The notes below the pieces were generated by a model. It was not told where the DNA came from. It saw only the letters and a program-made list of their open reading frames with translations, and did not search any database. A DNA stretch of 62,599 nt, filler included, from Kipferlia bialata (lineage: Eukaryota): assembly GCA_003568945.1 (NCBI GenBank). It is 5 parts of 5 records of this genome, joined end to end, with 100 filler letters (N's around TTAATTAATTAA, not from the genome) between each part and the next. Parts side by side here need not be neighbours in the genome. Positions count along the whole stretch, not along the records: positions 13,886 to 27,667 come from BDIP01000898.1; 4 more parts are not named here. One strand, 5' to 3'. A program made the position numbers and the translations under genes. Below, piece by piece: positions 1,702 through 55,725 of this stretch. Positions within the stretch are counted from its first letter, which is position 1, and each line of letters starts with the position of its first letter.

Positions 1702-4700
1702 CTAAGCCTTCACTCTCCCGCACCCCTTTGGGAATGTGAGGAATCCCCAGTCACGGGATGCCCCAGGAATGTGGTGGGTGGGGACAGGGGGGAGAGAGAC
1801 AGGGGTGGTGAGGGGTATGCCAAAGAGGTGGAACAGGACTCGGGAGGAGTGGCGCCGAGGTCTCACACGGGCTGCAGGTACTACAGGCACCGGGGCTACT
1901 ACTGGAGCTGCTGAGGGCATGGAGACACCACTGGGTGCTGGTACTGACGCATCGTTGACAACAAGGGAACGAGCACCACCCATCTCAATCTGCATACCAG
2001 AGTCCCCCTCCATATCATTGATATCAATGTCCTCCGCTTCCTCGGGTGGTCCCATATCCATGTCAACATCACCACCCATGTCAAAGTCCATGGCCTGCCC
2101 CACACTGCCATCCCTATCCACGCTGTCTGACTGGGGCACCTCCTTGGAGGAGTGATGGGAGGGGGAGTGACGAGAGAGGGAGTGATGGGAGGGGGAGTGA
2201 TGGGAGGGGGAGTGATGGGAGAGGGTGGGGGACTGCCTTGGAGATGGTGACTGCTGGGGTGTACGGGAAGGTGAGCGGGAGAGAGAGCGAGTCTGGTGGA
2301 AGGACTCCTCGGAGAGAGAGGGAGTGCCAGAGCTAGCAGCAATTCTGCTTGCTGTTGCCCACACGCTCTCACTCTCTTCCACTCTCCCACTCTCCCTTCC
2401 GCTCTCTCTCTCATCCGCTCTCTTCCTCACATTCTCTGGTGCCTCAACACCCATAGATGCAGGCATAGAGACAGAGGGTGTGACCTGGGAGGCATGTACC
2501 CTAGTGGCGACAGAGGCAGAGGCAGATGAGGATGTGTCGGCTGAGGAGAACGAGTTGGGTACGGACATCACAGTAGAGAGGGGATGCCTAGCACGGGCAG
2601 GGGTTGCCTTGGGAGGGGTAGAAGGCGCACGTCTCTTAGCTGGATACTCCGGTGCCACACGTGCACTCTGCACCAGACCCCCCCTAGTATATGCTGTGAT
2701 GTCGGAGTGGCACTGACCAAGGGTGGGTGTGGCTAGGCCTAGGGTGGTATCACTATCCACTCTCAGCATGGAGGCAGAGAGCGGCACAGTGGTAGAGAGA
2801 GAGGTGGCAGAGGGGGAGGGGGCAGGGGGATCAGGGGATGGAGCCAGGCCACCCATGGCTAGAGGGAGAGGGTGACGCTCAGACACATGCTCCGTCTCTG
2901 TCTCCACTATAGACTGCTGTACAGAGGGGGCTGATGCAACTGCCGATACAGAAGCTGGGGCAGTGACAGAGACAGAGACGGGGCCCTGCATAGTGGTGTG
3001 TGAGGTAGCAGTGACATGACTAGTCACAGCAGAGGTAGTCTCCACGGGAGAGGGAGACCTATGGGTAGTGTGTGTGGACACTGTCCTAGACCCATGCTGT
3101 GAGGGTAGAGTGGCAGGGGTCTCAGTGGGAGTAGGCGATGAAGGAGCAGGGATGGGTGCTAGAGCAGTAGCACTGTCAGACACGGTGGATGGGGTACGGG
3201 CAGCAGGGAGGGCTGAGCCAGCAACCTTGGTCCTCTCCAGTGTTGCAGTAGCACTACTAGCATCGACACCCACACTCTCACTGTGTCTCTCCTCCTCTCT
3301 CTCCCTGTTCTCTCTCTCCTGCTCCTGTCTCAGTCTCTCCCACTCCTTCTGCCTGGCGGCCTCTCTCTCTCTTTCCCTCGAAAGCCGAGCCTCCTCCTCC
3401 CTGCGGCGCTGCTTCTCAGCCTCCCACGCCTTCTGGCGCTCCTCCTCCTCTCTCTCCCTAATGATTTTGGCCTCACGCAGAGCAGCCTCCTCTCTCTCCT
3501 CTCTCTCTCTCTCCTGCTCATGCTCCGCCTCAGACACCACCAGAGATATGGTGGGGGTGGGGGAGAAGGGGGTGGGGGAGGGGGTCTGACCATGGGTAGA
3601 GAGAGCACTGGTAGGTCCGCTGAGTACACCAGTCTGCGTCACGGCAGTACCACCAGCACCCACTGTGTCACCCCCCACCCCAGCACGGGCCACTGCTGTA
3701 CCAGCAGGCACTGCAGCCTCAACACTAATACCCGAGGCCAGGGTAGGTAGAGTAGAGGGCGAGGGGGAAGGGGAGGGAGACAGCTCCAGCCTGCTGATGG
3801 AGGGCATGGCATCTATCTTCTCGTCCCTGTCCTCTCTCTCCTCTATCACCCTCTCACCCTCTACAGCTGTCTCCACCACCACCACCTCCTCCTCCTCTCT
3901 TACTAGTATAATAGACAGAGCAGGGGAGTTATCCCGTCCAACAGCCTCACCGTCTGAGGCAGCTGGGGTCCCTCCCTCCTGGTACCTCTCCACAGTGGGT
4001 GAGGCCCTGTCTCTGAAGGCATCATACACCGACTGGGACAGGAGGGAGTGGCAGGGGGAGGGGGCACGGGAGGGCGAGACGGACTGGTGTCTAGACCCTG
4101 TGGCAGAGTGAACACCGGACACATCTAGTCTGGAAGAGAGGGGGGCAGGAGGAGCTTGAGTCTCCTTACCCTCTCTCCCCTGACCAGCACCCAGGAGCAT
4201 AGAGAGAGAGGACACCCTGCTCCTACTCCTACTCCTGCTGCCCATGCCCCTAACGCCTATGGCATAGGATGAGACCTGGGTCATGTCTACATGGGTGTCT
4301 AGCTGACTGTGGTGGGAGAGAGAGGGGCTCTGTCTATCCACCTCAGCAGAGGCTCTAGGGGAGGGGGAGAGAGGGACTGGGGAAGGGGACTGACGGGCAT
4401 CACCCCCATCCTCACCCTCTCTCTCTCTCTCTGCACCATTCTCCCCCTCTCCCTCTGCCTGCCACTCAAAGGACACAGGGGCCTGCATAGGCTGGTCGTC
4501 CATATCCATCTCGTCCCTGTCCCCTCCCACATCCTGTGGGACCACAGGAACCCTAGGGCTACGTGTGGGTGTGGAAGGGAGGGACCCCGGCCCCGTACCC
4601 TCTGCACCACCAGGGGAGGCCAGGGGAGAGGGCACTCTAGCACTGGCCCTCTGTCTCCTGGCGCGCATGGCCTGTCTCCTCCTCCTCTCTGGTGTTGGTC

Positions 4701-5451
4701 TTGCCTTGCGCCGCCTCTGCCTGAGCCTAGGGGAGGATATGTACCTCTCCCCTAGCCTGCTGGGCCTGCCAGGGGTGGGGTTTACGACAGAGGGGTAGAG
4801 GCGGTCGGGGGCAGCCCCGGGGACAGGCCTGTGCCGCAGGACTGAGACTAAGGGCTTGTCAGGGCCCTTGCCCTTGGCGATGGTCTTGCCCCTACTCCCT
4901 CTCTGTGTGTTACCACCCTCTTCCCCCCCTGGGAGAGAGAGAGAGGCAGCCCTCTTGGCAGGAGAGGGTGCAGGAGGTGTGGACACTGCGTATCTGGGGG
5001 AGGCAGACCCACCAACAGAGACAGTAGGGGTGGACACGGTGGGGGGCCGTCTGTCCCTGGTCTGGACTGGGGTGGTAGGTGTGTCTAGGTGGGTGTCTCC
5101 GGCGTCAGTGCGTGTGTGCAGCTCATACACCTCAGAGGCAAACTGGACGTGCTTGCTGGGCTCCAGGGTGCTGCCATCGGTGGAGTCTCCGCCACCACGC
5201 ATCATGCTGGAGGTGAGTGGGGAGGGAGTGGGACAGAGAGAGAGAGACTGGAGGTGGGGCGATATGGATTGGGTGTGATGGGTGATGGGTGACAAGGGAT
5301 ACCAGCCTAGCGAAAAGGAACGCTGCTGCCAAAGCAAAGTCCCAATGAAACCATACGAATGAGGTAGAGAGGAATCAGAGGACTAGAAAGGGGGGTATGA
5401 CCCTACATAAGCTTATGGATACCTCTGATACAGGGCACTGAGCGCATTCAT
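1702..5451 (-). CDS. Large low-complexity Ser/Pro/Glu-rich protein with central charged coiled coil; start uncertain (about 5204-5451)
   Basis: 1211-codon ORF at 1702-5337; E/R-rich helix near 3290-3530; no recognisable domain. Confidence 0.7.
2149..2222 (-). repeat. Coding 15-bp tandem repeat encoding (SHHSP)x~5
   Basis: gagtgatgggagggg units on the + strand. Confidence 0.8.
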
Positions 5452-17580: not shown

Positions 17581-18350
17581 CCCAGTCTGACCGTGTTGCC
17601 GAGCTCCCTCCCCCCGGGTCTGTCTCCAACCCCATGGCAGATCTAGACGCCATACTAAGCATGGGCACTACCAGTGCACCCACTACCCAGTCTAGACCCT
17701 CTGCACCCTCTAGGCCTGTCTCTGATGTGTCTGTCAGAGAGGCCAGGGCCCCCACCCCCAGTGTGGTGCCTGATACAGTGGAGGCACCCCCAGCTACTAA
17801 GACCAAGGGACACGCCATATCAATGAGCACAGCATTTGGAGACGTGACAATGACAGGCGACCAGGTGTGTGTGTATATATATAGAGAGAGATGTATATTC
17901 ATACATACATATAGGGGGAAGTATGCACTTATATTACTCTGTGTGTTATTGAAGGATAGTACTGCAAGTATACCCCCACCCCCAGGCCAAGCAGGCTGCC
18001 AGGGCCGCCCTGAGTGCTGGGAGGGCTGGGGTGGCTATGGGGGTGAGTGCCGCAAACACACACACCCACAGCCATGCACCGGCCCAGAGTGACACCAACC
18101 AGCTGAACGATGAGTTTGGGGACTTTATGAGTGCGCCCTCCCCCACGCAGCAGGTATGAAAGGGTATATGTATATATATAGAGAGAGAGAGAGTGTGTGA
18201 GGCATTCCTCTCCCACGCAGGATATGTATATATATAGACACATATACCATGACCTGTCCTGGTTGTATCTCTGTATCACTCTATATGTCAATGTCTAACC
18301 CCCAGCAGCCCACCACCCAGGATGCATTCGCCAGGATATTCGACATGTGA
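14002..18350 (+). CDS. SCYL2: SCY1-like pseudokinase with HEAT repeats (SCYL2/CVAK104 type), 5'-truncated
   Basis: HVHLNLTPASVCMCEGGAWKLGGFCF, SDIYAL, KSILPAV..RNGLVCLSKI match SCY1/SCYL2; disordered tail with DEFGDF; ends DAFARIFDM-TGA at 18350. Confidence 0.8.
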
Positions 18351-18556
18351 GAGGCATGCGTATATACATGAAGGAGAGGAGCACTGGGGATGAGTGGGCA
18401 GTATCATTGGCTGTGACACTCCCTTGAGATATGCCTGAGGTGGAGAAGGAATAGACAGGGAAATACACGGAGGGGATACTAGGCCTAGTAAATGGAAGTG
18501 ACAGGAGAGTTACACATCTCCAGACTAACTCTCCACTTGGATTGATAGTTCTATTG

Positions 18557-18621
18557 TCAATCTCGCTCATGCGGGTGCCTCCGTATAGGATTGGGCATCA
18601 CGCAGTCAATGCGAGAATCGA
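18557..18621 (-). promoter_or_regulatory. Putative type II SECIS element in the 3' UTR of the SelW-like gene
   Basis: RNA UCGAUUCUCGC-AU-UGAC-UGCGUGAUGCC-C-AA-UCC-UAUAC-GGA-GGCACCCGCA-UGAG-CGAGAUUGA folds by hand into helix I, UGAN/NGAN core, about 11-nt helix II, unpaired AA and a UCC/GGA mini-stem. Confidence 0.75.
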
Positions 18622-18709
18622 GCACTCTTCTGGGTATAGAGGTGGTGCAACCCCATACAGTCCATTCATTCACACCACTAGGCAGCATATGCTATGCTAT
18701 ATGCTATGC

Positions 18710-19156
18710 TTACAGGGCACGGATGAGGTCAATGTACACCTGGGGGGAGGGGCAGGAGCCAAGCTTGGGCTTGCCGTAGAGGAGGGTCCTCTCGCCATCC
18801 TCGGCCGTCTGGTACACGTTGAATGTCTTGAACTGGGGGTGAGAGGCACGTCTATATATGTATATATATGCACACAGGTGGTCAGAGGCAGGGTATGAGA
18901 AGAAAGACCCAATGAAAATAGAGATGCGACAGCTATGCCTTAAAATGAACAAGCAGCTACCTTGATGTGGGAAGGGTTTCCGACCACCTCGATTCCTGGG
19001 AACTCTCTGAGGGTGAGGGGACATGGTCAGAAGGGGTCAAAAGAGATATCATAAAGAATCTTGGTAGACAGTGCCCCACCTCTCCAGAGCCTGCTTAGCC
19101 TCGTGGAACCGAGGTGTGTAACGTCATGTGATGCAGTAGTCTATCTCAATCTTCAT
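18710..19156 (-). CDS. SELENOW: SelW/Rdx-family selenoprotein, 81 aa, CxxU motif (in-frame TGA at 19126-19124)
   Basis: Exons 19156-19080, 19006-18961 and 18832-18710 (all GT-AG) give MKIEIDYCITURYTPRFHEAKQALEREFPGIEVVGNPSHIKFKTFNVYQTAEDGERTLLYGKPKLGSCPSPQVYIDLIRAL; matches the SelW pattern I.YC..U.Y..(R/K)..L..EFP. Confidence 0.88.
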
Positions 19157-19570
19157 TTCTAGGGACTCAGGGATAGACTGAGTTGAAGAGAGCAGGTTCA
19201 TTCAAATCCACTTTAAAGAGACCAGATCTCTCAGAATTGATTGTCCGTTAGAACATCAAACGGATAATCGATTCACAAGTGGGCATCCAATTCTTGTGCA
19301 CGACAGTACTGATATGTCCAAACCTAACCGGTGTATGCTGTATTTGATCGAAGTCAACATCCGTGTAGCCAATTCAAACAAGGTCCATAATGGACCGTCC
19401 ATTGTTTTAAGCGTGACAAGAGCTTGACAAGCTTTCACTATTGGTGAAAATTTGAATTCTCAAAGTCGACGCGACTATGAAGAGCCACGTGGAACCCGCC
19501 CACGTCTTATTCACCAGTCATAGTGTCTCTTGGTGAGTAGTAGAGCTTGTCACGACGCATATATTTGCAG

Positions 19571-19827
19571 TTTGGGGATGGGTCAGCTGGAATCTTGCTT
19601 TTGTGGAGGGCTGGAGCTTAGTGGCGTGCTGCTGCTGCTGCTGCAAGAAGAAGAAGCGGCCAGTGTCGCAGTCCCAGGTGAACCTCAAGGGCGGTGCTGT
19701 GCCACCTGAGGGTCTCAACCCAATGGCCACGGCAGCACCTGGGATGGTGACCCCTGTGGTGGGTCCTGTAGGGGCTATGCAGTATGCACAGGTGCCCCTG
19801 CAGTACCCATCTGGGCCTGCTCCATAA
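19571..19827 (+). CDS. Short exon encoding a hydrophobic segment + CCCCCKKKKR + Pro-rich tail; start not found (small membrane protein or gene remnant)
   Basis: WGWVSWNLAFVEGWSLVACCCCCKKKKRPV...; preceded by a putative intron at about 19533-19570. Confidence 0.35.
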
Positions 19828-20163
19828 TGGGGAACACAACTCGCAATGGAGTGAAGGACATTTAGAGTGGCTATTTAGTGTTGTGTACGAGATCAAAGTA
19901 AATGAATCATTTGCGTGACAGTGAATACTGGTTCATAGTGGATAACTACCTAATCTCAGAGTGTGACATAGTGTGTTTCAGACGGAGATACTGGGCACAG
20001 TACCAGTAGTACTGGTATGTACTGGTCCAGTACATACATAAATATCAGACCCAATCTGATACCAACAATCCATCCGCAAGTACACTACATATCTAATTGT
20101 GATTCTAAAGTTGTGGGATATTGAAACATCGCTATGACAGCAAGCATAAAACTCTCTCTCCCC

Positions 20164-22562
20164 CTAGCCCTTTGCATCTCCTGTCCCTGAGTCCACAGGG
20201 TCTAGGGGATTGACCTGACCTAGTGGTAGAGGTATGGGCTCAGTGATACATGGGGGCAGGGCCTTGGACCTTAGGAATGAAGGGATGTCTGGGTAGGTGG
20301 TGTGGTCGAAGGAGCCCTGGCGGTGAGATAGGGTATTCACTGAGAGAGACGACTGCCGAACTACCTGACTGAGGAACCTCTCCACCATCCCCCCCACCAT
20401 ACCACTCAGACACATGACGGGGTGGGGGGCAGGGAGCACAACACTGTCTCCCATCCCATGGACAGCGGTGCGGCCCACACCCACCTTGCCGTCATTGGGA
20501 CCTGGGGTCAGATGGGGTATACATGTATGTACAGCTCTTGATAAACATCAATAGTACATTGTGACACATATATGAGGAGATACCCACCTGGTATCAAGAG
20601 GGACAGGAGCCAGTTAATTGTCCAGTTTCCAGCTATGACACCGCAGTCAAAGGACACAGGGGGGAGGGAGTTGGGGACGGAGTCAGAGCCAGTGCCTGTG
20701 GGGTGAGAGGCAGAATTACTCAGAAGACTGGAAGGCCTTGCTTCTATACTCTCTTGGACTTGACCCACCTAGGCTACCCCCTGCTTCCCCGTTCATCCAC
20801 TGGAACAGCCACCAACTGCCCAGTGCATCAACCACCTCACTGCCTATGGGTGAGGGTATAGGTAGGGTAGTAGACGTTATAGCATGTATTTCAATATGAA
20901 TACAGGCTAGATGTACCTTGGTTAGGTGGCCCCAGCATGCAGACTCTCCCAATGGGTGGCATGGGTGTGGCATCACTAGTGGCAGAGGGTACACTGACTG
21001 ATACACAGGAGGGATCAGCTGTAGATGAACAGGTTGCCGAGTCGTTCTCTCTCTCCTCCTCCACCCCTGCACTACACACCGAGTCACTCACTACTGTATC
21101 ACTCAGTATGTCGGTGATGGTGGCAGAGTGGGGAGAGACATTGTGTATCTCTGCCTCTATTAATACCCCCCTCTCTCCCTCAGCCGGTCTGTCCTCCCGT
21201 ACATCGTACGGGTGGAGGTGCGCTAGGTAGTAGCGGGTCTGGGGTGAGGAAGAGGAACAGTATTTATATCACAAGAATTGTACCTGCACGTCAATGATAT
21301 ATACACCTCTACGCACCAGTATGCCCCCCATGCTGTGTGTCACAAAGTGGATCTTGGTGGCACCTGAGTGTGAGGGATAAGAGAGAGAGATGAAGGAAAG
21401 GAATGACACCGGGAACATATAGATCTATAGACTATACACGGCTACGGTTATGTAATGTAGAAGGCATGTATAATTGTGTCCACAGTCAAAGTGCAGTCAT
21501 AGAGTATCCAGTCTGTACCTGCCTCTCTGCACATCTGGACAGCACACATCAATCACACATACAAAGTATAGCATGTACTAGAGAATGCCTGTATCGTTGT
21601 GGCCATTAGATCTGGTGTGTATGTTCAGTACCTGCCTCTCTGCACATCTGGACAGCAGGGGCTAGGTACTCGGCAGTTAGAGTGCTGGGTGTAAGTACTT
21701 TCACTTATGTATAGGCCTAGTAATATTGTAATGAAACTTTGAGTAGTATATGATGCATCTATCCCCCCACCTTATGTCCTTCTGGGTGGACGGGTAGTCC
21801 ACCAGCACTGTGCTGTAGCCCTTGTCCCTCAGTCTCCTGGCCAGTCTGGTCATGGATCGACTGGACCTGATGAGACCATGGACCAGAATGACATACTCAT
21901 CGCCAACTGGGAGGATGAGAGAGAGAGAGAGAGAGAGAGATGACATACTCATCGCCAACTGGGTAAGAGAGATGGGGGGGGGGGAGAGAGAGAGAGAGAG
22001 AGGGAGAGAGAGACGATAGGACTCATCACCAACTGGGTCAGAGAGGGGAGATGGGGAGAGAGGGAGAGAGAGAGGGAGATGGGGGGTGGAGACGATAGGA
22101 CTCAGCACCAACTGTGTCAGGGGAGAGAGAGAGAGAGAGATCTTAAGGAGATGAGTGTCAGAACAGTAGGAAAGAAACTGCGTGGAGTGGGAGGTGGGAG
22201 AGAGAGAGAGAGAGAGGTAAGCCACTGGGAGTATAGTATAGTACAGAACGAGAGAATACTATTGAGGGGAATACCTTGCTGTATATGAGCCCCCTCCCTG
22301 CCCCTCCTCCCCTTAAGCTGGGCACCAAGAGTGACCCCTGCCACGGCTAGGGCACTTCGCACAGACAGAACAGGCATCTTGCCTGGGTTGGAGGGTATAA
22401 CACTACAACACAAACACATATGTCTATGATACATAGAGAGAGTCAAAGTGATGCTTGGAGAGAGGAACTATGCTTACATGCATTACCTCTTCCCACCACA
22501 AGCAGAGCGGTGAGTAGCAGGGTGCCCCCCAGCACTACCAGCCATTGCTCAGCATACACCAT
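20164..22562 (-). CDS. Alpha/beta-fold hydrolase (lipase/esterase, bacterial type) with N-terminal signal/anchor
   Basis: VILVHGLIRSSRSM..GYSTVLVDYPS..IHFVTHSMGGILVR..MLGPPNQGSEVVD..GVIAG..LIPGPNDGKVGV..PHP; first exon MVYAEQWLVVLGGTLLLTALLVVGR splices in frame. Confidence 0.85.
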
Positions 22563-43813: not shown

Positions 43814-44838
43814 TACTATACAATACATATATAATATATACCTGAGGACAGGGTGCAAGGTGTCCAGTTACACCATACACATATATCACGTACTGTACAC
43901 ATAGTGTACATTATACTACGTTATTACACAATACATATATATACTACGATATTACACAATATACATATATATTATATAATACATATTATACAATATATAT
44001 ATATACTATACAATATATATACATATATAATACATACCTGAGGACAGCGTGCACGGTGTGCAGGTTCTTGAGCTCTCTCTTCTTCCTCTCCTACTGGTAA
44101 GAGGTGAGAACAAGTATTTCATATACATATACAAGAACGCAAACAGCATGATGATCCAATGGCGTGTAACATATTGCAGTCATAATACATACTATATCAA
44201 AACATTGTGACCCACGTGTGCTGCTGTGTTCTTCATGCAGTATTTATATACTCATATATATATATGTATATGTGTGTATCTATATTAATACATTTCTATA
44301 TATATATATATATATATTCATATTTACATATATATACCTGTGCAGCAGTGTTCTTGATGCAGTAGATGCTGAACACAACCAGCTCGGCTATGCAGAGCAC
44401 GCAGCCAACAAGGGCGTAGATGTGCTCCTGGGGTCAGAGAGGTAAGCTAATACACTATTCATATGAATGAAATAACACAGTATATTCATATACTAAGATA
44501 GTGTAATATTCATATGAATGAAATAATACATTCTCACAATAATACATGATTTACAAGGCGTAGATGTGCTCCTGGGGTGAGATAGGTAAGATAATACACT
44601 ATTCGTATGAATGAAATAATACATATTCATATACAAAGATAGTGTAATATTCATATGAATGAAATAATACATACTCACAATAATACATGATTTACAGGGC
44701 GTAGATGTGCTCCTGGGGTGAGAGAGGTAAGACATTATAATATATAATAATATATAATATATAATATAATAATAACACGTAGTAATATATTCATATGAAT
44801 GAAAATCATATGATTTAAAAGGGGCGTAGATGTGCTCC
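41720..44838 (-). CDS. Fragment of a microexon-rich hypothetical membrane protein in long TA-rich introns
   Basis: Exons EHIYALVGCVLCIAELVVFSIYCIKNTAAQ / ERKKRELKNLHTVHAVLR / SFSATRDLISPHNENTND / DERATLIDSHVSSGLTSNPL. Confidence 0.5.
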
Positions 44839-45151
44839 TGGGGGGGGGGGGGGGGGGGGGGGGGAAAAAAGGAAAAACAANNNNNNNNNNNNNNNNNNNN
44901 NNNNNNNNNNNNNNNNNNNNNNNNNNNNNNNNNNNNNNNNNNNNNNNNNNNNNNNNNNNNNNNNNNNNNNNNNNNNNNNNNNNNNNNNNNNNNNNNNNNN
45001 NNNNNNNNNNNNNNNNNNNNNNNNNNNNNNNNNNNNNNNNNNNNNNNNNNNNNNNNNNNNNNNNNNNNNNNNNNNNNNNNNNNNNNNACATGGCAGTGCT
45101 TATTATCCCTACCCCCCCCCCCCCTCCCCCTTCCCCTCCCCCTTACCCTAG

Positions 45152-46319
45152 TGCTGAGGACATGGAGTTCCCAGATGAGGTGGACACACCTTGCGACGTC
45201 CCTGTGCGTGAGAAGTTTGCCGGCTACCGAGGCCTCAACTCCTTCCGCACCTCCCCCTGGATCGGTGCCAAGTACGAGCTGCCCGAGGCCTACTCGGCCC
45301 TGTACCGCATCTCCCACCCTAGGGAGGTCGAGAAGGTGGTGCTGGAGGAGCAGGCCAGGGGCATCGACTGCGCCATGCCAGGCCAGTACGTGGTTGTTGT
45401 GCTGAGGGAGTGCTCCTTCAAGGGCATGGGAGGTGAGGACCAGACTACCAACACCCTCGAGGGCGTCATGGGTCTCTACGCCAACCAGGCCCCCGTCACA
45501 TGCTTCGGCCTGCTGAGGCACGAGACCAAGATGTCCCTCTGCCACTTCAGGGTCAAGCGCCACCCCGTCTTCTCTGCCCCTGTCGATGAGGAGGGCAACC
45601 CTCTCCCAGACACCGAGAACGAGTACCTCATCAAGAGCGGGGACCCCCTCGTCATCCAGTACGGGTTCAGACGTGTGCTGGCCTTCCCCACCATCAGTGA
45701 GCACCTCTCTGATCCCAAGCAGGACAAGGCGAAGATGGTCAGGTTCTTCCACGAGGGCATGAACCTCGTCCTCTCTGCAGTGTGTCCTGTGGCACTCACC
45801 AGGCCCAACGTGCTCATCTTCAAGCCTGTCGACCCCGAGCAGTGTCCCGAGGCCGCAGGAGCACCCCTGAGGCTGGTTGCCACAGGCACGGGCCTCCCCC
45901 CCAACGTGGACAAGCTGATCATCAAGCGTGTTGTGCTGACTGGCTACCCCCTCAAGGTGTCCAAGATCACTGCCTGGGTCAGGTACATGTTCTTCAACAG
46001 GACCGACATCAAGTGGTACAGACCCATAGAGCTGCAGACAAAGTACGGCCGCACCGGCCACATCACACAGCCCGTTGGTCTCCACGGTCTGCTCAAGGCC
46101 AGGTTCGACAAGCCTCTGCACCAGGGCGACACCGTCATGCTGAAGCTGTACAAGAGGACATTCCCAGACGCAGCCTCCACCCTGCCCTTCGGTGTATCTA
46201 CTCTCGAGGCCTGTGGCAACGCCATGACTGCCTACCTCGACAAGGAGGAGGATGCTAGGGAGGAGGAGAGAGCCAGGATCGAGGGACAGGAGAAGGACAT
46301 TGTCGACATGGCAATGTAG
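45152..46319 (+). CDS. TSR1: Pre-rRNA processing protein TSR1, C-terminal exon
   Basis: EFPDEVDTP..REKFAGYRGLNSFRTSPW, FGLLRHETKMS, IIKRVVLTGYP, VRYMFFN, GHITQPVGLHG..KARFD, LYKRTFP. Confidence 0.93.
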
Positions 46320-46774
46320 GAGTGATGGTAATCAGTTATAGCTTTTGTGTTTGTATGTCTATTGTTCGTTGCTTCCTTAAATCTATGACTCCATTTTGAC
46401 TGCGGGTTGTAGTGTAGTTTGTCTTGTGCTCCATAGAACAAGTGTGCGTTGTGGGTTTTATCGGTGTTGCTGATGTGAGTATTAGTCTCATGGACAAAGC
46501 TTGGGTTCGCCTGGCACATACTGTAAAATATTGCATCCTCTCCCTTAGTAGTAAGAACTCTCTGGTAGTGTGACTGTCAGAGCAGAGCTTTCACTGACAC
46601 TGACTCAGTGACTGAGTGACTGATTGAGTCCGGACCCTTATTGCAAAAATCCAGAATTCTCTCGCGCCTTGGTCTGGCTAAAGTACGGCATACACGCCCT
46701 TTCATTGCACTCAAGTGCACTTATAAGACTGAACGAGCGATCCGTGCGTCATACTGCCTGAGTAGACTGTTTCT

Positions 46775-49700
46775 ATGCAGTCTGCGAGATCGGCGCGCAC
46801 GCCTCGAGTACCTGAGGAGGAGGCGCACTCACTACCTGATATAGACCTGATCCCAATATCGACCAATGACCTTCTCCACAGCCTGAGAAGGGATGTAGCA
46901 GAGGAGGTTAAGGTGCTGCAGGGGTACGAAGCAGAGAGGCTCAACCACTACCTGCGGCCGAGTGGGTCCTCCAAGACAGAACTCCAGGCAATACCCAGAC
47001 CGGTGCCTGAAGGTATCCTATGCCTATACACTGTTCATACTAGCGTGAGTGTGTACATATTTTTCATAGTTGGGTTGCCTGTGTTTGTTATCCTCACTGT
47101 ACAAATACCTGTCTCTTTATCATTATCTACTATACTCATCTGTTCTCCCACCCCGTCTCACCTGATAGGGGAGGACCTTATCAGAGCCAACACTGCGTCT
47201 CTGAAGCGCTTTGGAGATGTCCCTAGGCCCGCCCTCCCCCTTGTGTGGGGAGACCTGCTCACCCAGCAGAACCTGAGTGCCGCCACTCCTCTTGTGTCTG
47301 TCCCTGCTGACCTGGTGGGTGTGCTATGGGACTATGGGATGAGGGCGGCTAGAGAGGCCTTCCACATGTGGAGGCTGTGTCTGCTGCGGTACAACAGGTG
47401 CCACACCAAGGACGTGATGGCCAGTTCCCAGGCCATACTGGAGAGGATGCTGGTGACCCATGAACAGGGGTGGCAGAGCAAGAGAGAGCTGCTGGCCCGG
47501 CTCAAGGCAGTGGCCAAGGAGGGCAACATCAAGCTGAGCGAGGCCTACATACCCCTGGCCTCCCTCCCCACCCCCGGCCCAGACTCCCTCCCCCCCGGTC
47601 TTGTGGAGCCTGTGTTTGAGGTGGCCAACTCGAGTGATGCCTTTGTGACTGTGGATGACTGCCTAGGGGTGGCCAAGACGATGGCTGTGCCTCTGACAGT
47701 GGTAGATGAGACCATGCCCAGGCTGCAGTGGCTGGGGGAGAGCAAGAGGGGCCTCATTCTGCGTCTGGCCGTTGATGCCTCCATGCAGTCTGTGTCTGTG
47801 CCCACTGTGGTGTGTGAGCAGGCTGATGCAGACCGCATGCTGTCGGGTCTGCTGCCTCTGTGTGGGTCAGATGCCTCTAGTGTCAACGCCACAGACAGTG
47901 AGAGTGTTGTCTTGCTGCAGAGGCGGTTCAAGGATGAGGTGTCGCAGGTGATGCAGTCCCTACAGGTGGCACTGACTGGTGAGGTCAACACACAGGCACC
48001 CCTGCTGCTGGTCGAGCCAGCCTCACTGGACGGCACCATCCTGTGCCCCGCCGCCACCCCCCACCCCCCCTCCCCCCAGACGGTCAATGTGGAGGCGTCT
48101 GAGACTAGGGTCAGGGACGGACCAGACACCGTGGCACCCTCCACCAGCCTCCTGACTGGGGGCGGCACTGATCAGGTGTTTGGATCAGTCCAAGCCACAG
48201 TCCGTACCACCCTGGCTGCATCCACCCCTGACGTGGCCCCAGGCCAGTTTGTGCTCAAGCTCCTGAGGCAGATGAGTGGTGAGCATGCAGCCCTAGTCAA
48301 GATGGGTGGCCAGGCATGCCACGTTGCATCCTCCTCCCTCGATGCCCTGTATGAGCTCAGGCATCTGGCCATCCTGCATCTGAGAAGGGAGATACTCTTC
48401 CTATCCAACCAGTGCAGTGCGGTGGTCCAGTCTCTGGCCTCTGACCTCTACTCGGGCCATGCCACGGACATGCCGGCTGTCTTCCTCCCTGCCTTTGACC
48501 CCAAGGCCTTCATCGAGTCCCAGACAGACACGGCCTCCTTCTACACAGTGGACCCCCATGGGCTGGATGTGCTGAGTGCGGCTGGGGAGAGGGTGTTATT
48601 GCAGTCTGCCCTGGATGGTCTGGAGGATATGGACGCCAGACACCTTGTCCTGGCCAGTAGGGTGGTGGCAGCCACGCCCAAGGACTCACCCACCGTGTCC
48701 AGACCTGCCCTGCTGGTGTCTATCCTCAGACTGGAGGTGGCACTGCACAGGGCCAAGAAGTCTCTGCTTCTCGACCTCCAGTGCGGCCTCCTAAACTGTG
48801 TCGATGTGCTGCAGAGCCGGTCTCTGCTGATACTCGCCAGGAGGGTGGCTGCCCTGCAGGTGGAGTTTGGGCCTGACTCCGACCCCCTGCCCTACGCCAC
48901 TGCCAATGTGAGGGCCATAGAGGGGTATGCCAAGACCCTGCACTGCCTGATGACTGCGGCACAGGCCGAGGTGGGGACCGACATCGAGGGACACCCCATG
49001 GACGTGGGTGGAGGTATATCGATGGGCATGACCGACATCAACCCGGCCCTGGCCCAGGCCGCCATGACGCTCTCCACCCTCTTCGATGTCTCTGACGCCG
49101 TGGCACATGCCTTCCCCTCTCTCTCCCCCCAGTGCATAGCGTCAGGGGTGGGCACTGCTGCCCATATGGAGGTGCTGTATGTGACTCAGAGGAGGAGGGA
49201 CGCAGGCCCCCTCTCTGACCTCCCCGCCCCCCTTAGGCTGGCTGGTCAGTTTGGGTACATCTCCCCTGACACCGTGGAGGCCACCTTCGAGGTAGCCCTC
49301 AAGGAGGCACTCGAGAGGGCAGAGGAGGTGGACACTAACTTCAGCACCGACGTCATCAACTCGGAGACAGTTGCCGGGCCCTCTGCCGCCTTCCTCACCC
49401 CTAAGCGTCTGCTGGAGGCCATCCCCTCACCCCCCTCTGGCACCGAGGCCAGGCTGACAGCGTGTGTGGGTGCGTCCTCCCTCAGACAGTGGAGTGGATG
49501 GCCCCAGACAGAGTGGCCCATACCCATGCAGGTGTGCCAGAACATACTGAATGTGGTGTATGCAAAGAGGCGTCTCTGGAGTGCCACCCTCGAGTCTGCA
49601 GTGCTTGGCCAGATATACGGAGCACAGTGTGAGCTGCTGGGCCTCAGTGCCCGTCTTGCCCTGGGTGACATGGAGTGGGAGGCCCTGGAGGGCAGGGCCG

Positions 49701-52700
49701 AGGAGGAGGTGCTCAGGGAGAGCAAGAGAGAGCAGGCAGACATCGGTGTGCAGACTGCCTTTGATAGGTCCAAGGGCGTGTCATTGGAGCCCGAGGCCGT
49801 GTCCTTCTTCGCCCATGCTGTAGATGAGATCACACCCACCGACCTCCAGGGCTTCGTGTCCCTGATATCCCTCAGAAGACAGGTGGACCTGTCTGCCTCA
49901 ACCGTCAGGTCCTTCGGGTTTGACGATGCCTACGATGCCCCCACATACTCTCTGTGTGCCGGGCCAGCCCTTGTACAGAGGGTGGCCCAGGCCCAGCTCA
50001 CCTTCTGCTCCCTCTTGGTAGCCTGTACCCGCCTCAGCCAGCCCGCCCTGGACCAAGTCAGACGTACCCAGCTGACAGCCGAGGCTGAGGTGATACAGTC
50101 GCTGGGGGAGGCCACGCTGATGTCCAGGGCCAGAGACGCCGTGCAGAAGGGTGACACCTTTGTCACCAGGAGGGTGGCACTGGACGACTCTGACCTCCAC
50201 ACGTCGGGTATGAAGGTGGTAACAGAGCAGGACCCCCTCCTAAGACTGGACAGGGTCACCTACCTGGAGGCCCTGTACTCCGTGGTGTGGCAGGACCTGC
50301 TTTACATAGTGCCAGTCGCACAGGCAGGGAGAGAGATGCAGGGCAGCGTCATCAACCCCATGACAGTCAGGTCTGCGGCTAGGAAGAGGCTGTCCCAGCA
50401 CCACAAGAGAAGAGCGGACGCAGTCAGGGACGCCGTGGCTCTGAGTCAGGACGGGACTGACGCAAAGGCGGCCGTCCTCTCTCTCCGCCACGCCATGATC
50501 TCCCCCTACCTCTCCCTCATCTCCAATGCCATCCGGTCCATAGCTGTGTGTGCCCAGATAGCCGGTGTCGCAGCCACCTGTGTCAGCACCCTCAAGAGTG
50601 TCGACACTGGGTCTGTGCCCTACTACGTCAACGAGGCAGATGCCCAGGAGCCCACCTTCGCAGAGGACTGCACCATAGGCTCCTTCTTTGCTATCCCCGA
50701 CCCCCGCTTCTGTGCTGACCTACTCCCTACCAAGGACATCACGCTGCCAGTGCCCACTGCCCTTGTGGCCACTCTCTATGCACTCATCTGCCACTCTGAC
50801 ATACTGTCTGTGCTGGCACTGATGCAGACCCTGGAGGGGGGTGATGTGGGGTCCCAGGTTGAGCTGATAGCCCAGGCCGTGCACACTGTGGTGCAGGAGG
50901 CAGACAAGGAGGAGAGAGCTAGTCAGGCACTCAAGTATCTGGCCAAGCGGCGTGACACCCTAGTCCTATCTGTCCTTCCCTGTCTCCTCACCTGTCTGAG
51001 GCAGAGTGCCCATGCTGAGGCAGAGGCCGAGTACAACCACTGTGCCAGCATTATTGCTAGGTACTGCCGGTCGTTCCAGATCCCCCTGGGTGTCAGCTAC
51101 TACTCCTTTGATGGCATGCACAATGTCAACCTGATAGCACAGTCCATGGGGGACTCAGCAGGGGGGGACCAGGCACCCAAGCTGGAGTGCCCAGCCACGC
51201 CCTCCTTTGCCCTATCCTCCGGCCCCTTCCTGATGTCCCCCACCCTGCCCCTGCCCTCTAGGCCCATGTCTGGCAAGGCAGTGTCCACTCTCTACAAGGC
51301 AGTAGTCGACATGGCAGTCGGTACAGAGAGGGAGGGGGGTGCCAGTGTGGGTGTGCCTACTAGAGGTGCAGGCCATGCACTCAACGTCAGGGGGTCTCTC
51401 CCCCGTGCCCAGCTCCCCAGGTGTGCCCAGGCCGTGGGTGCTGTGGACTGCTACACATCATGGTCCCTGCTCTGCCACCCAGGGTACCTCACCCAGTCCA
51501 GGGTGGTGTCCCAGCTATCAGGGGCCGAGGCAGAGAGTGGGGGAGAGGGCAGCCTGTGGAGAGGTATGGGCCTGGCCGGCACCTCTGACGTGTACTGCCC
51601 CCTGGCCTCTGTTGTGTCTGCCGTCAAGGCCATCCAGAGCCAGTCCCTCAAGCTGGCCATTGTGTCTCAGTCCCTCAGACTAGAGCTGGAGCTGGAGGCA
51701 GAGCTCTCTCTGGTGTCAGAGGACCTCACCCCTTCGCAGAGGGAGACAGAGGCCCTCCGCACCGTGGCCTCTCTTGTGTCCAGCTCCAGGGTGTGCAACC
51801 TGTTCAGCTACATCTCCCTGCACCGCACACACTCCATGTTCAGCCCAGGCACCATGTCATCCTACTCCACGGCAGAGGACGCCTTCAACGACCAGGTGCT
51901 AAGGTCCCTCCTGATCGACATAGCCCAGGAAGGCAAGCACAACACTCCGGAGTCACTGCTGGTGGAGATACAGGCAGACCAGAGAGTGGTGGACACTGCT
52001 GTCTCCAAGTACCTGCGTCACCTGAGGCTGACCTCTGACCAGACCCTGACTATACAGAGGGAGCATGCCCTGCGGGAGAGGGTCGTAGCAGAGGGCCTGC
52101 AACGCATCGAGGCAGAGTGTCTGCGGTGCTTCAAGGCTGCCATCCAAGAACTGAAGGTGGCCATCGAGGACAACAGGACAGAGACCATCCCCACCCAGGA
52201 GCACCCGACCCTTCCCTGGGTCCCATTCTATGCACACACCACGCTCACAAAGTTCAACCTCTCCCGCATCGACGACTCCCACCACGTGCGGTCTCTGCAG
52301 CGAGACCTCCTGGGCAGGGCCGAGACTGTGCACGATAGCAGTGGCACTGTGTACATGATCCCTGCTGACTCACTCGTCAAGGCACTCGACGCACACGCAG
52401 GTGGGTGCCAACGTGTAAATATCAATTTTCAGTGTATATTTATTCAAATATCTCTACCTCATTAGCTCTAACCCCCAGAGAACCTGATTGAGTGGCAGAC
52501 CCAGCTGATGGGCACTGTGCAGAGGAGGGCCACCATGATGGTATCCACCCTGAAGAGAGAGGCAGCGGAGGCACATGCCCTGGCAGATGCTAGGCAGAAG
52601 AGGCTGGAGGCAGTGACAGCAGAGGTCGGACGCAGGGTGGACTCCCTGGCTGCACTGTCAGGGTTCAGTCAGGTAATGATGCATTGGTGTATACAGAGTC

Positions 52701-55590: not shown

Positions 55591-55725
55591 GGTACCATCA
55601 TTGAGGTGGATGTGTCTGACCTAGGCCTGGTGACCCAGTCCGGCAAGGTGGTGTGGGGCAAGTACGCCCAGGTGACCAACCACCCCGACAGGGATGGGTG
55701 CATCAACGCCATCATGCTGGTGTAG
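55591..55725 (+). CDS. NSA2: Ribosome biogenesis protein NSA2, last exon
   Basis: After ctcaccccag: [47 protein letters not shown], the conserved NSA2 C-terminus; absent from the ORF track. Confidence 0.93.

Follow-up and report, generated by a model that had tools for sequence, protein, structure and literature searches.

The closest described systems are found in Spironucleus. According to the accessible parts of the papers, SelW1 of Spironucleus barkhanus and S. salmonicida carries UGA at the selenocysteine (Sec) position (PMC2874811, PMC3916229), and homologues with cysteine at that position occur in Giardia and S. vortens (PMC2874811). Spironucleus has the Sec pathway (PMC2874811, PMC3916229, PMC6397501). 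UGA is its only stop codon, and the accessible text of PMC2874811 reports that ERPIN found no canonical SECIS element. Sec machinery is also described for the Preaxostyla Monocercomonoides and Paratrimastix, with SBP2 listed for Monocercomonoides (PMC6759080, PMC10703272, accessible parts). Given the published SelW1 of Spironucleus and the machinery of Spironucleus, Monocercomonoides and Paratrimastix, a free-living fornicate would be expected to use Sec, as the ancestral condition. Kipferlia bialata is a fornicate, as the initial annotation of the locus described here had supposed. Its remark that Spironucleus keeps Sec is likewise borne out by the publications on the UGA-containing SelW1 and the machinery (PMC2874811, PMC3916229, accessible parts).

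We analysed a stretch of 62,599 nucleotides from K. bialata (assembly GCA_003568945.1), called the window below, and all positions count along it. Three public runs cover the small SelW-type gene on its minus strand: X1, a DNA run, and X2 and X3, both marked 'RNA?'. X1 and X2 come from one sample and X3 from another. The run data are contigs, which give presence only, neither levels nor true ends. X2 behaves as RNA, because it contains many further GT..AG joints over 13.7 kb. The following features were assigned to the small gene:

19157..19186, minus strand: 5' untranslated leader, minimal extent, from the X3 contig start
19080..19156, minus strand: coding part of exon 1 (77 nt) with ATG, first strand, CxxU motif and first helix
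19124..19126, minus strand: in-frame TGA, codon 11, putative Sec of C8-x-x-U11, unchanged in X1, X2 and X3
19007..19079, minus strand: intron 1 (73 nt), GT..AG, branch-type motif ahead of AG, joint in X2 and X3
18961..19006, minus strand: exon 2 (46 nt)
18833..18960, minus strand: intron 2 (128 nt), GT..AG, branch-type motif ahead of AG, joint in X2 and X3
18710..18832, minus strand: coding part of exon 3 (123 nt) with the C-terminal half of the Rdx-like domain, TAA at 18712-18710

The spliced exons sum to 246 nt, which corresponds to 81 codons plus TAA. The motif around the TGA is C8-I9-T10-U11; 70 more open codons follow, and the introns keep the phase. Three GT-AG exons, a protein of 81 residues and TGA as codon 11 had been proposed before, and the recomputation from the sequence gave the same coordinates. 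In the contigs of X2 and X3 both introns were joined at exactly the predicted positions, with zero letter differences. No splice joint was seen in the small gene in the DNA run X1. The contigs of the gene start at 19186 (X3) and 19152 (X2), both upstream of the UGA. Hence, the mature mRNA keeps the in-frame UGA, and the frame is open beyond it. The initial annotation had asked for RNA across the junctions and the TGA; in both RNA-type runs, from two samples, the introns were joined and the TGA was unchanged, and neither TGC or TGT at this codon nor an intron removing it was found in the X2 and X3 contigs. Furthermore, no GT dinucleotide is present between ATG and TGA, so an intron starting in the coding part cannot remove the TGA. 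Codon use after the TGA is of the coding type (0.415 bits per codon in frame, the other five frames being negative), and GC3 of the coding sequence is 0.76. The observation of a hidden, spliced, UGA-containing gene is confirmed.

An X2 contig of 1933 nt (18000-19152) links the small gene with a convergent gene on the plus strand. The 3' ends of both genes probably overlap or abut within the 360 nt between their stops. Directly after the TAA, at 18709-18683, a short imperfect palindrome with repeated units of 5-7 nt folds as a small hairpin.

The gene is present in the public annotation in a different form. The database protein P0122 is GIQ83022.1 (KIPB_004267) of K. bialata, which combines an upstream alpha/beta hydrolase (22562 to about 20215) with residues 20-81 of the small protein. 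Two further features are needed for the comparison:

20164..22562, minus strand: alpha/beta-hydrolase gene, terminated by a separate TAG (20166-20164)
19100..20214, minus strand: 'intron' of KIPB_004267 (1115 nt), joining the hydrolase to codon 20 and skipping the UGA

If this annotated fusion were right, the hydrolase would splice into 19099, the product would have 450 residues and the UGA would never be translated. In contrast, a continuous, unspliced stretch of X2 covers 19662-20315 and so includes the postulated donor at 20214, the hydrolase carries its own TAG, and the contigs of the small gene in X2 and X3 begin upstream of the UGA (19152 and 19186). The acceptor of the fusion ends in GAG and is not preceded by a CT[ACG]AC motif. 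Of 13 RNA-confirmed introns, counted over the spliceosomal X2 joints among those listed, 11 carry this motif, compared with 522 of 9215 AG sites (5.7%) as background in the window. Moreover, the fusion skips precisely exon 1, the part that matches Rdx. The public model is thus hardly credible as the main product, and the 1115-nt intron is judged to be an annotation artefact. A minor hydrolase-SelW fusion isoform may exist, as contigs drop rare variants. The expectation that automated annotation would hide the gene proved right, since KIPB_004267 merges it with the hydrolase and omits the UGA.

In general, the RNA-confirmed introns between 14455 and 25945, among the joints listed, are 55-189 nt long and often start with GTGGGG; 11 of 13 introns among these joints have a branch-type CT[CG]AC shortly upstream of a C-rich AG. 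The best structural-sequence matches of the hydrolase (20164-22562, minus strand) are small bacterial lipases, and lateral transfer of this gene is possible.

The family of the small protein was investigated with profiles, alignments and a fold model. Exon 1, translated with U for TGA, matched Pfam Rdx (PF10262) with E=1.7e-5 and 25.4 bits, above the cut-off of 22.6 bits, and the proposed Rdx identity could be verified in this way. The genomic frame containing exons 1 and 3 reached 25.9 bits (cut-off 22.6) over model positions 1-73 of 74; this frame of 148 residues is artificial and unspliced, exons 1 and 3 sharing one frame by chance. With TIGR02174 (SelT/SelW/SelH) the exon 1 piece obtained 22.5 bits and E=1e-4, the cut-off of 34.2 applying to whole proteins. 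When 18 bacterial members of the Rdx family were aligned to the protein, invariant columns coincided with C8, with TGA codon 11 and with the G-x-x-P of exon 3, the TGA being aligned with the invariant second Cys. The N-terminal CxxU is therefore located at the motif position of the family, as had been claimed.

The C-terminal part was compared with 25 bacterial Rdx tails by global alignment, giving z values of 3.6, 3.0 and 3.8 with 1, 4 and 3 of 1000 shuffles as good (exon 3 tail: z=3.8, 3 of 1000), where the tail lengths had been picked after the alignment had been seen. An HMM built from the same 25 bacterial tails scored the C-terminal part below zero. With hhalign, 71 of 200 shuffles were as good for the C-terminal 62 residues and 183 of 200 for the whole protein of 81 residues; Pfam Rdx gave no match for the C-terminal 62 residues alone. 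Evidence on the homology of this part thus points both ways. The Rdx seed set was narrow: in one phylum 25 of 151 genomes contained the family, in another 0 of 18.

For the artificial unspliced frame, a fold of strand-helix (exon 1) and strand-strand-helix (exon 3) was predicted with a mean pLDDT of 54.8, the model being steered by bacterial Rdx rows. The VIA comparison of this model yielded Z values of at most 5.3 throughout. Its weak matches included 2FA8 (Z 5.1, rmsd 2.4, 59 aligned), mouse SelW and MIEN1; 2NPB was obtained with Z 4.5, rmsd 3.3 and 77 aligned, and both 2FA8 and 2NPB were tied with unrelated chains. Foldseek gave no match to the model at E<=0.001. A mixed profile gave 7e-6 for MIEN1 and 0.1 for SelW, but it is dominated by bacterial rows and says little about the Kipferlia protein. 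Compared with the Rdx family (SelW, SelT, SelH, MIEN1 and bacterial SelW-like proteins; 2NPB, 2LJK, 2FA8), the protein has the same size of about 80 residues, the N-terminal strand-CxxU-helix and the G-x-x-P ahead of the last helix. In contrast, its C-terminal half is divergent, and the hairpin of the protein contains a short insertion.

Homologues of the protein were searched in several collections. The exon 1 region gave no candidate, and the C-terminal region of P0122 gave two, none of which scored. Two loci from genome contigs were rejected as spurious. In metagenome contigs, 0 of 311 stretches were homologous. Among 1.84 billion representatives three matches were detected; one is the public fusion model P0122, and the other two were discarded as they depend on intron-derived residues. 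Hence, no close relative besides the mis-fused public model was found among these representatives, and no eukaryotic homologue was found with exon 1, with the P0122 C-terminus, in the metagenome contigs or among the representatives. The best match in the PDB sequence search was 3DEX (E=0.37), and nothing relevant was obtained there for the long genomic frame.

Downstream of the stop codon a hairpin was detected, which had not been seen in the initial annotation. It is composed as follows:

18559..18619, minus strand: predicted type II SECIS-like hairpin in the 3' UTR (folding, pattern scan, shuffles)
18616-18611/18566-18561, minus strand: helix I
18610-18608, minus strand: 3-nt bulge
18607-18606/18568-18567, minus strand: predicted tandem G.A pairs
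18604-18594/18579-18570, minus strand: helix II, containing a single mismatch and a single bulge
18592-18591, minus strand: apical bulge, AA
18590-18588/18582-18580, minus strand: helix III, 3 bp

The 3-nt bulge together with the tandem G.A pairs forms what we take to be a standard kink-turn. The hairpin lies 101 nt after the TAA stop and 314 nt downstream of the UGA, which exceeds the minimum UGA-SECIS distance of 51-111 nt (PMC3753652, accessible part). A loose SECIS pattern matched 13 sites on both strands of the window. The hairpin ranked first, and 3 of the 13 passed a loose energy filter. When the 360 nt between the stops were shuffled 3000 times with dinucleotides preserved, 101 shuffles had any pattern match, but none passed the energy filter and none was as good (z=-3.3); as the pattern was defined after the hairpin had been seen, the actual probability exceeds 1 in 3000. 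Among 109 sliding windows over 19400-18250, the hairpin had the lowest z (-3.9). In the spliced mRNA all seven tested pairs had a probability of at least 0.99. One X3 contig extends from 19186 to 18566, where the last 7 nt of the hairpin are missing, and is free of the exons of the neighbouring gene. The SECIS-shaped fold, which lies on the correct strand, is non-random.

According to the accessible parts of the literature, the SECIS consensus comprises UGAN/KGAW with a preceding A or G, a helix II of 11-16 bp and apical A's (PMC2647825, PMC3753652, PMC4989117, PMC2761289). The Kipferlia hairpin resembles eukaryotic type II elements in its position in the 3' UTR, in the invariant UGA/GA core between two helices (18608-18606 and 18568-18567), in a helix II of 14-15 positions including the quartet, and in the apical AA in a bulge and the helix III, which fit the consensus. 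In contrast to the consensus, it has U at 18609, where A or G precedes UGA, and G at 18566 after the 3' GA, the W position of KGAW; these features of the consensus are conserved but do not belong to its invariant part. Its helix I closes directly on the 3-nt bulge, with almost no internal loop. In this respect it is closer to a standard kink-turn than to two human elements with internal loops of 8-9 nt (PMC2761289, accessible part).

Rfam gave 0 matches for the whole window at gathering score, and for 18250-19250 at E<=10 no SECIS family and two unrelated chance matches. An AUGA-containing hairpin near 18675-18625 was dropped because 104 of 200 shuffles folded equally well. Directly behind the UGA, no significant recoding hairpin was detected (z -0.3 to -1.3). 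The metagenome pattern search provided no homologous hairpin for covariation; three metagenome loci matching the SECIS-shaped pattern were rejected, as they represent one bacterial region and are unrelated. Three related bacterial metagenome contigs (L028-L030, 1470-1580) share a conserved gene-end stretch with hairpin-like arms; it is this stretch that the pattern matched, and it looks unrelated to the SelW gene.

It was also examined whether UGA has another meaning in this organism. The convergent plus-strand gene is terminated by TGA at 18348-18350, its last exon being joined in X2. TAG terminates the hydrolase (20166-20164) and three long frames, and an NSA2-like frame ends with TAG at 55723. 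These results agree with the earlier statements that TGA is an ordinary stop elsewhere in the window and that TAG is one in NSA2, whereas the eRF3 gene named there was not located in the window. General reassignment of UGA in K. bialata is unlikely. A dual-meaning codon or near-cognate read-through would place Cys or Trp instead of Sec at codon 11, and with Cys the protein would be an ordinary CxxC Rdx protein as in Giardia (PMC2874811, accessible part). However, the neighbouring gene terminates at TGA, and the three long frames contain 24 TGG and 51 TGC/TGT but 0 TGA in 3512 codons, a count that is partly circular because the frames were chosen as stop-free. The SECIS-shaped element points toward Sec as well, and we regard reading as Cys or Trp as highly improbable.

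Two long frames in the window, 1702-5382 (minus strand, 1226 codons) and 46766-52465 (plus strand, 1899 codons), are free of introns in an intron-rich genome, and neither matched Pfam at E<=0.01. At 44814-46319 (plus strand) the end of a Tsr1 gene was found, interrupted on its upstream side by an assembly gap. Its best match is a Chilomastix protein, narrowly (219 compared with 217 bits).

Taken together, the locus is very probably a three-exon, spliced SelW-type gene for a protein of 81 residues, in which UGA is decoded as Sec with the help of the predicted SECIS. Sec decoding is likely from what is known of the eukaryotic pathway, from which we infer it; the same interpretation in the initial annotation is supported, and the SECIS-like hairpin, unseen there, adds to this support. 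By analogy, the hairpin at 18619-18559 would act as SECIS, an L7Ae-domain protein similar to SBP2 would bind its kink-turn core, and eEFSec would bring Sec-tRNA to codon 11, so that the ribosome would read on as far as the TAA codon. This would yield a soluble redox protein of small size and thioredoxin-like type, which would alternate between a Cys8-Sec11 selenenylsulfide and the reduced form and would probably serve in oxygen stress or in redox control of partner proteins. No tRNA gene was found in the window.

Alternatively, Sec decoding could have been lost recently. In this case UGA would be a true stop, and the transcribed pseudogene would yield a peptide of 10 residues or a substrate for decay. 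K. bialata is marked '-' at SecS and PSTK in Table S1 of PMC7762791 (accessible part), the hairpin is non-canonical and not recognised by Rfam, and the C-terminal half of the protein is weak in profile tests. On the other hand, a dead gene would not be expected to keep 70 open codons past the UGA, with codon use as in coding sequence and introns that preserve the phase, a spliced form in two samples and an intact SECIS-like hairpin. In the same part of Table S1 the mark '-' is also given to K. bialata for essential synthetases, namely AlaRS, CysRS and LeuRS, three of the four that were looked up. Thus, '-' does not equal absence in this table (PMC7762791). A K. bialata protein is listed there among the matches of the diplomonad selenophosphate synthetase (SelD); in Spironucleus this enzyme is fused to NifS, and the NifS half may be what produced the mark (PMC3916229, accessible part). 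We consider loss of decoding improbable and a functional selenoprotein gene the better explanation.

Compared with Spironucleus SelW1, both are fornicate SelW-like genes with UGA at the Sec position, a likeness that is based on the published description. In contrast, Kipferlia uses all three stop codons and Spironucleus UGA only, and the Kipferlia gene contains two introns, with a hairpin shaped like a SECIS behind its stop. UGA-containing SelW in fornicates is already known, so that the SECIS variant is possibly the new part. In the literature searched, mostly outside subscription journals, no Kipferlia selenoprotein, fornicate SECIS, metamonad selenoproteome or UUGA SECIS was found, and the accessible supplements of PMC5874029, PMC11787283 and PMC11316075 (5 of 6 files) contain no Sec terms bearing on Kipferlia. 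Surveys of selenoproteins at database scale may already include the Kipferlia gene.

It is conceivable, though rather doubtful, that a SECIS variant peculiar to fornicates exists, namely a textbook kink-turn whose bulge measures 3 nt, in which UUGA replaces RUGA and an open internal loop is lacking. Such a variant escapes standard models, and this would account for the negative SECIS result in Spironucleus. If true, a divergent SECIS reader, either an altered SBP2 or a different protein of the L7Ae type, would be implied, and further hidden selenoproteins would be expected across Fornicata.

The public model KIPB_004267 appears, after correction, to comprise two genes, of which one encodes a hidden selenoprotein. 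PMC2874811 (accessible part) describes the recoding signal in this group as unknown; here the hairpin provides a concrete SECIS candidate, which can seed searches in Spironucleus, Trepomonas, Carpediemonas and others. Sec use is likely extended by this locus to a fornicate that is free-living and diverged earlier than the diplomonads, and its occurrence in Kipferlia would fit ancestral presence of Sec use and its loss in Giardia.
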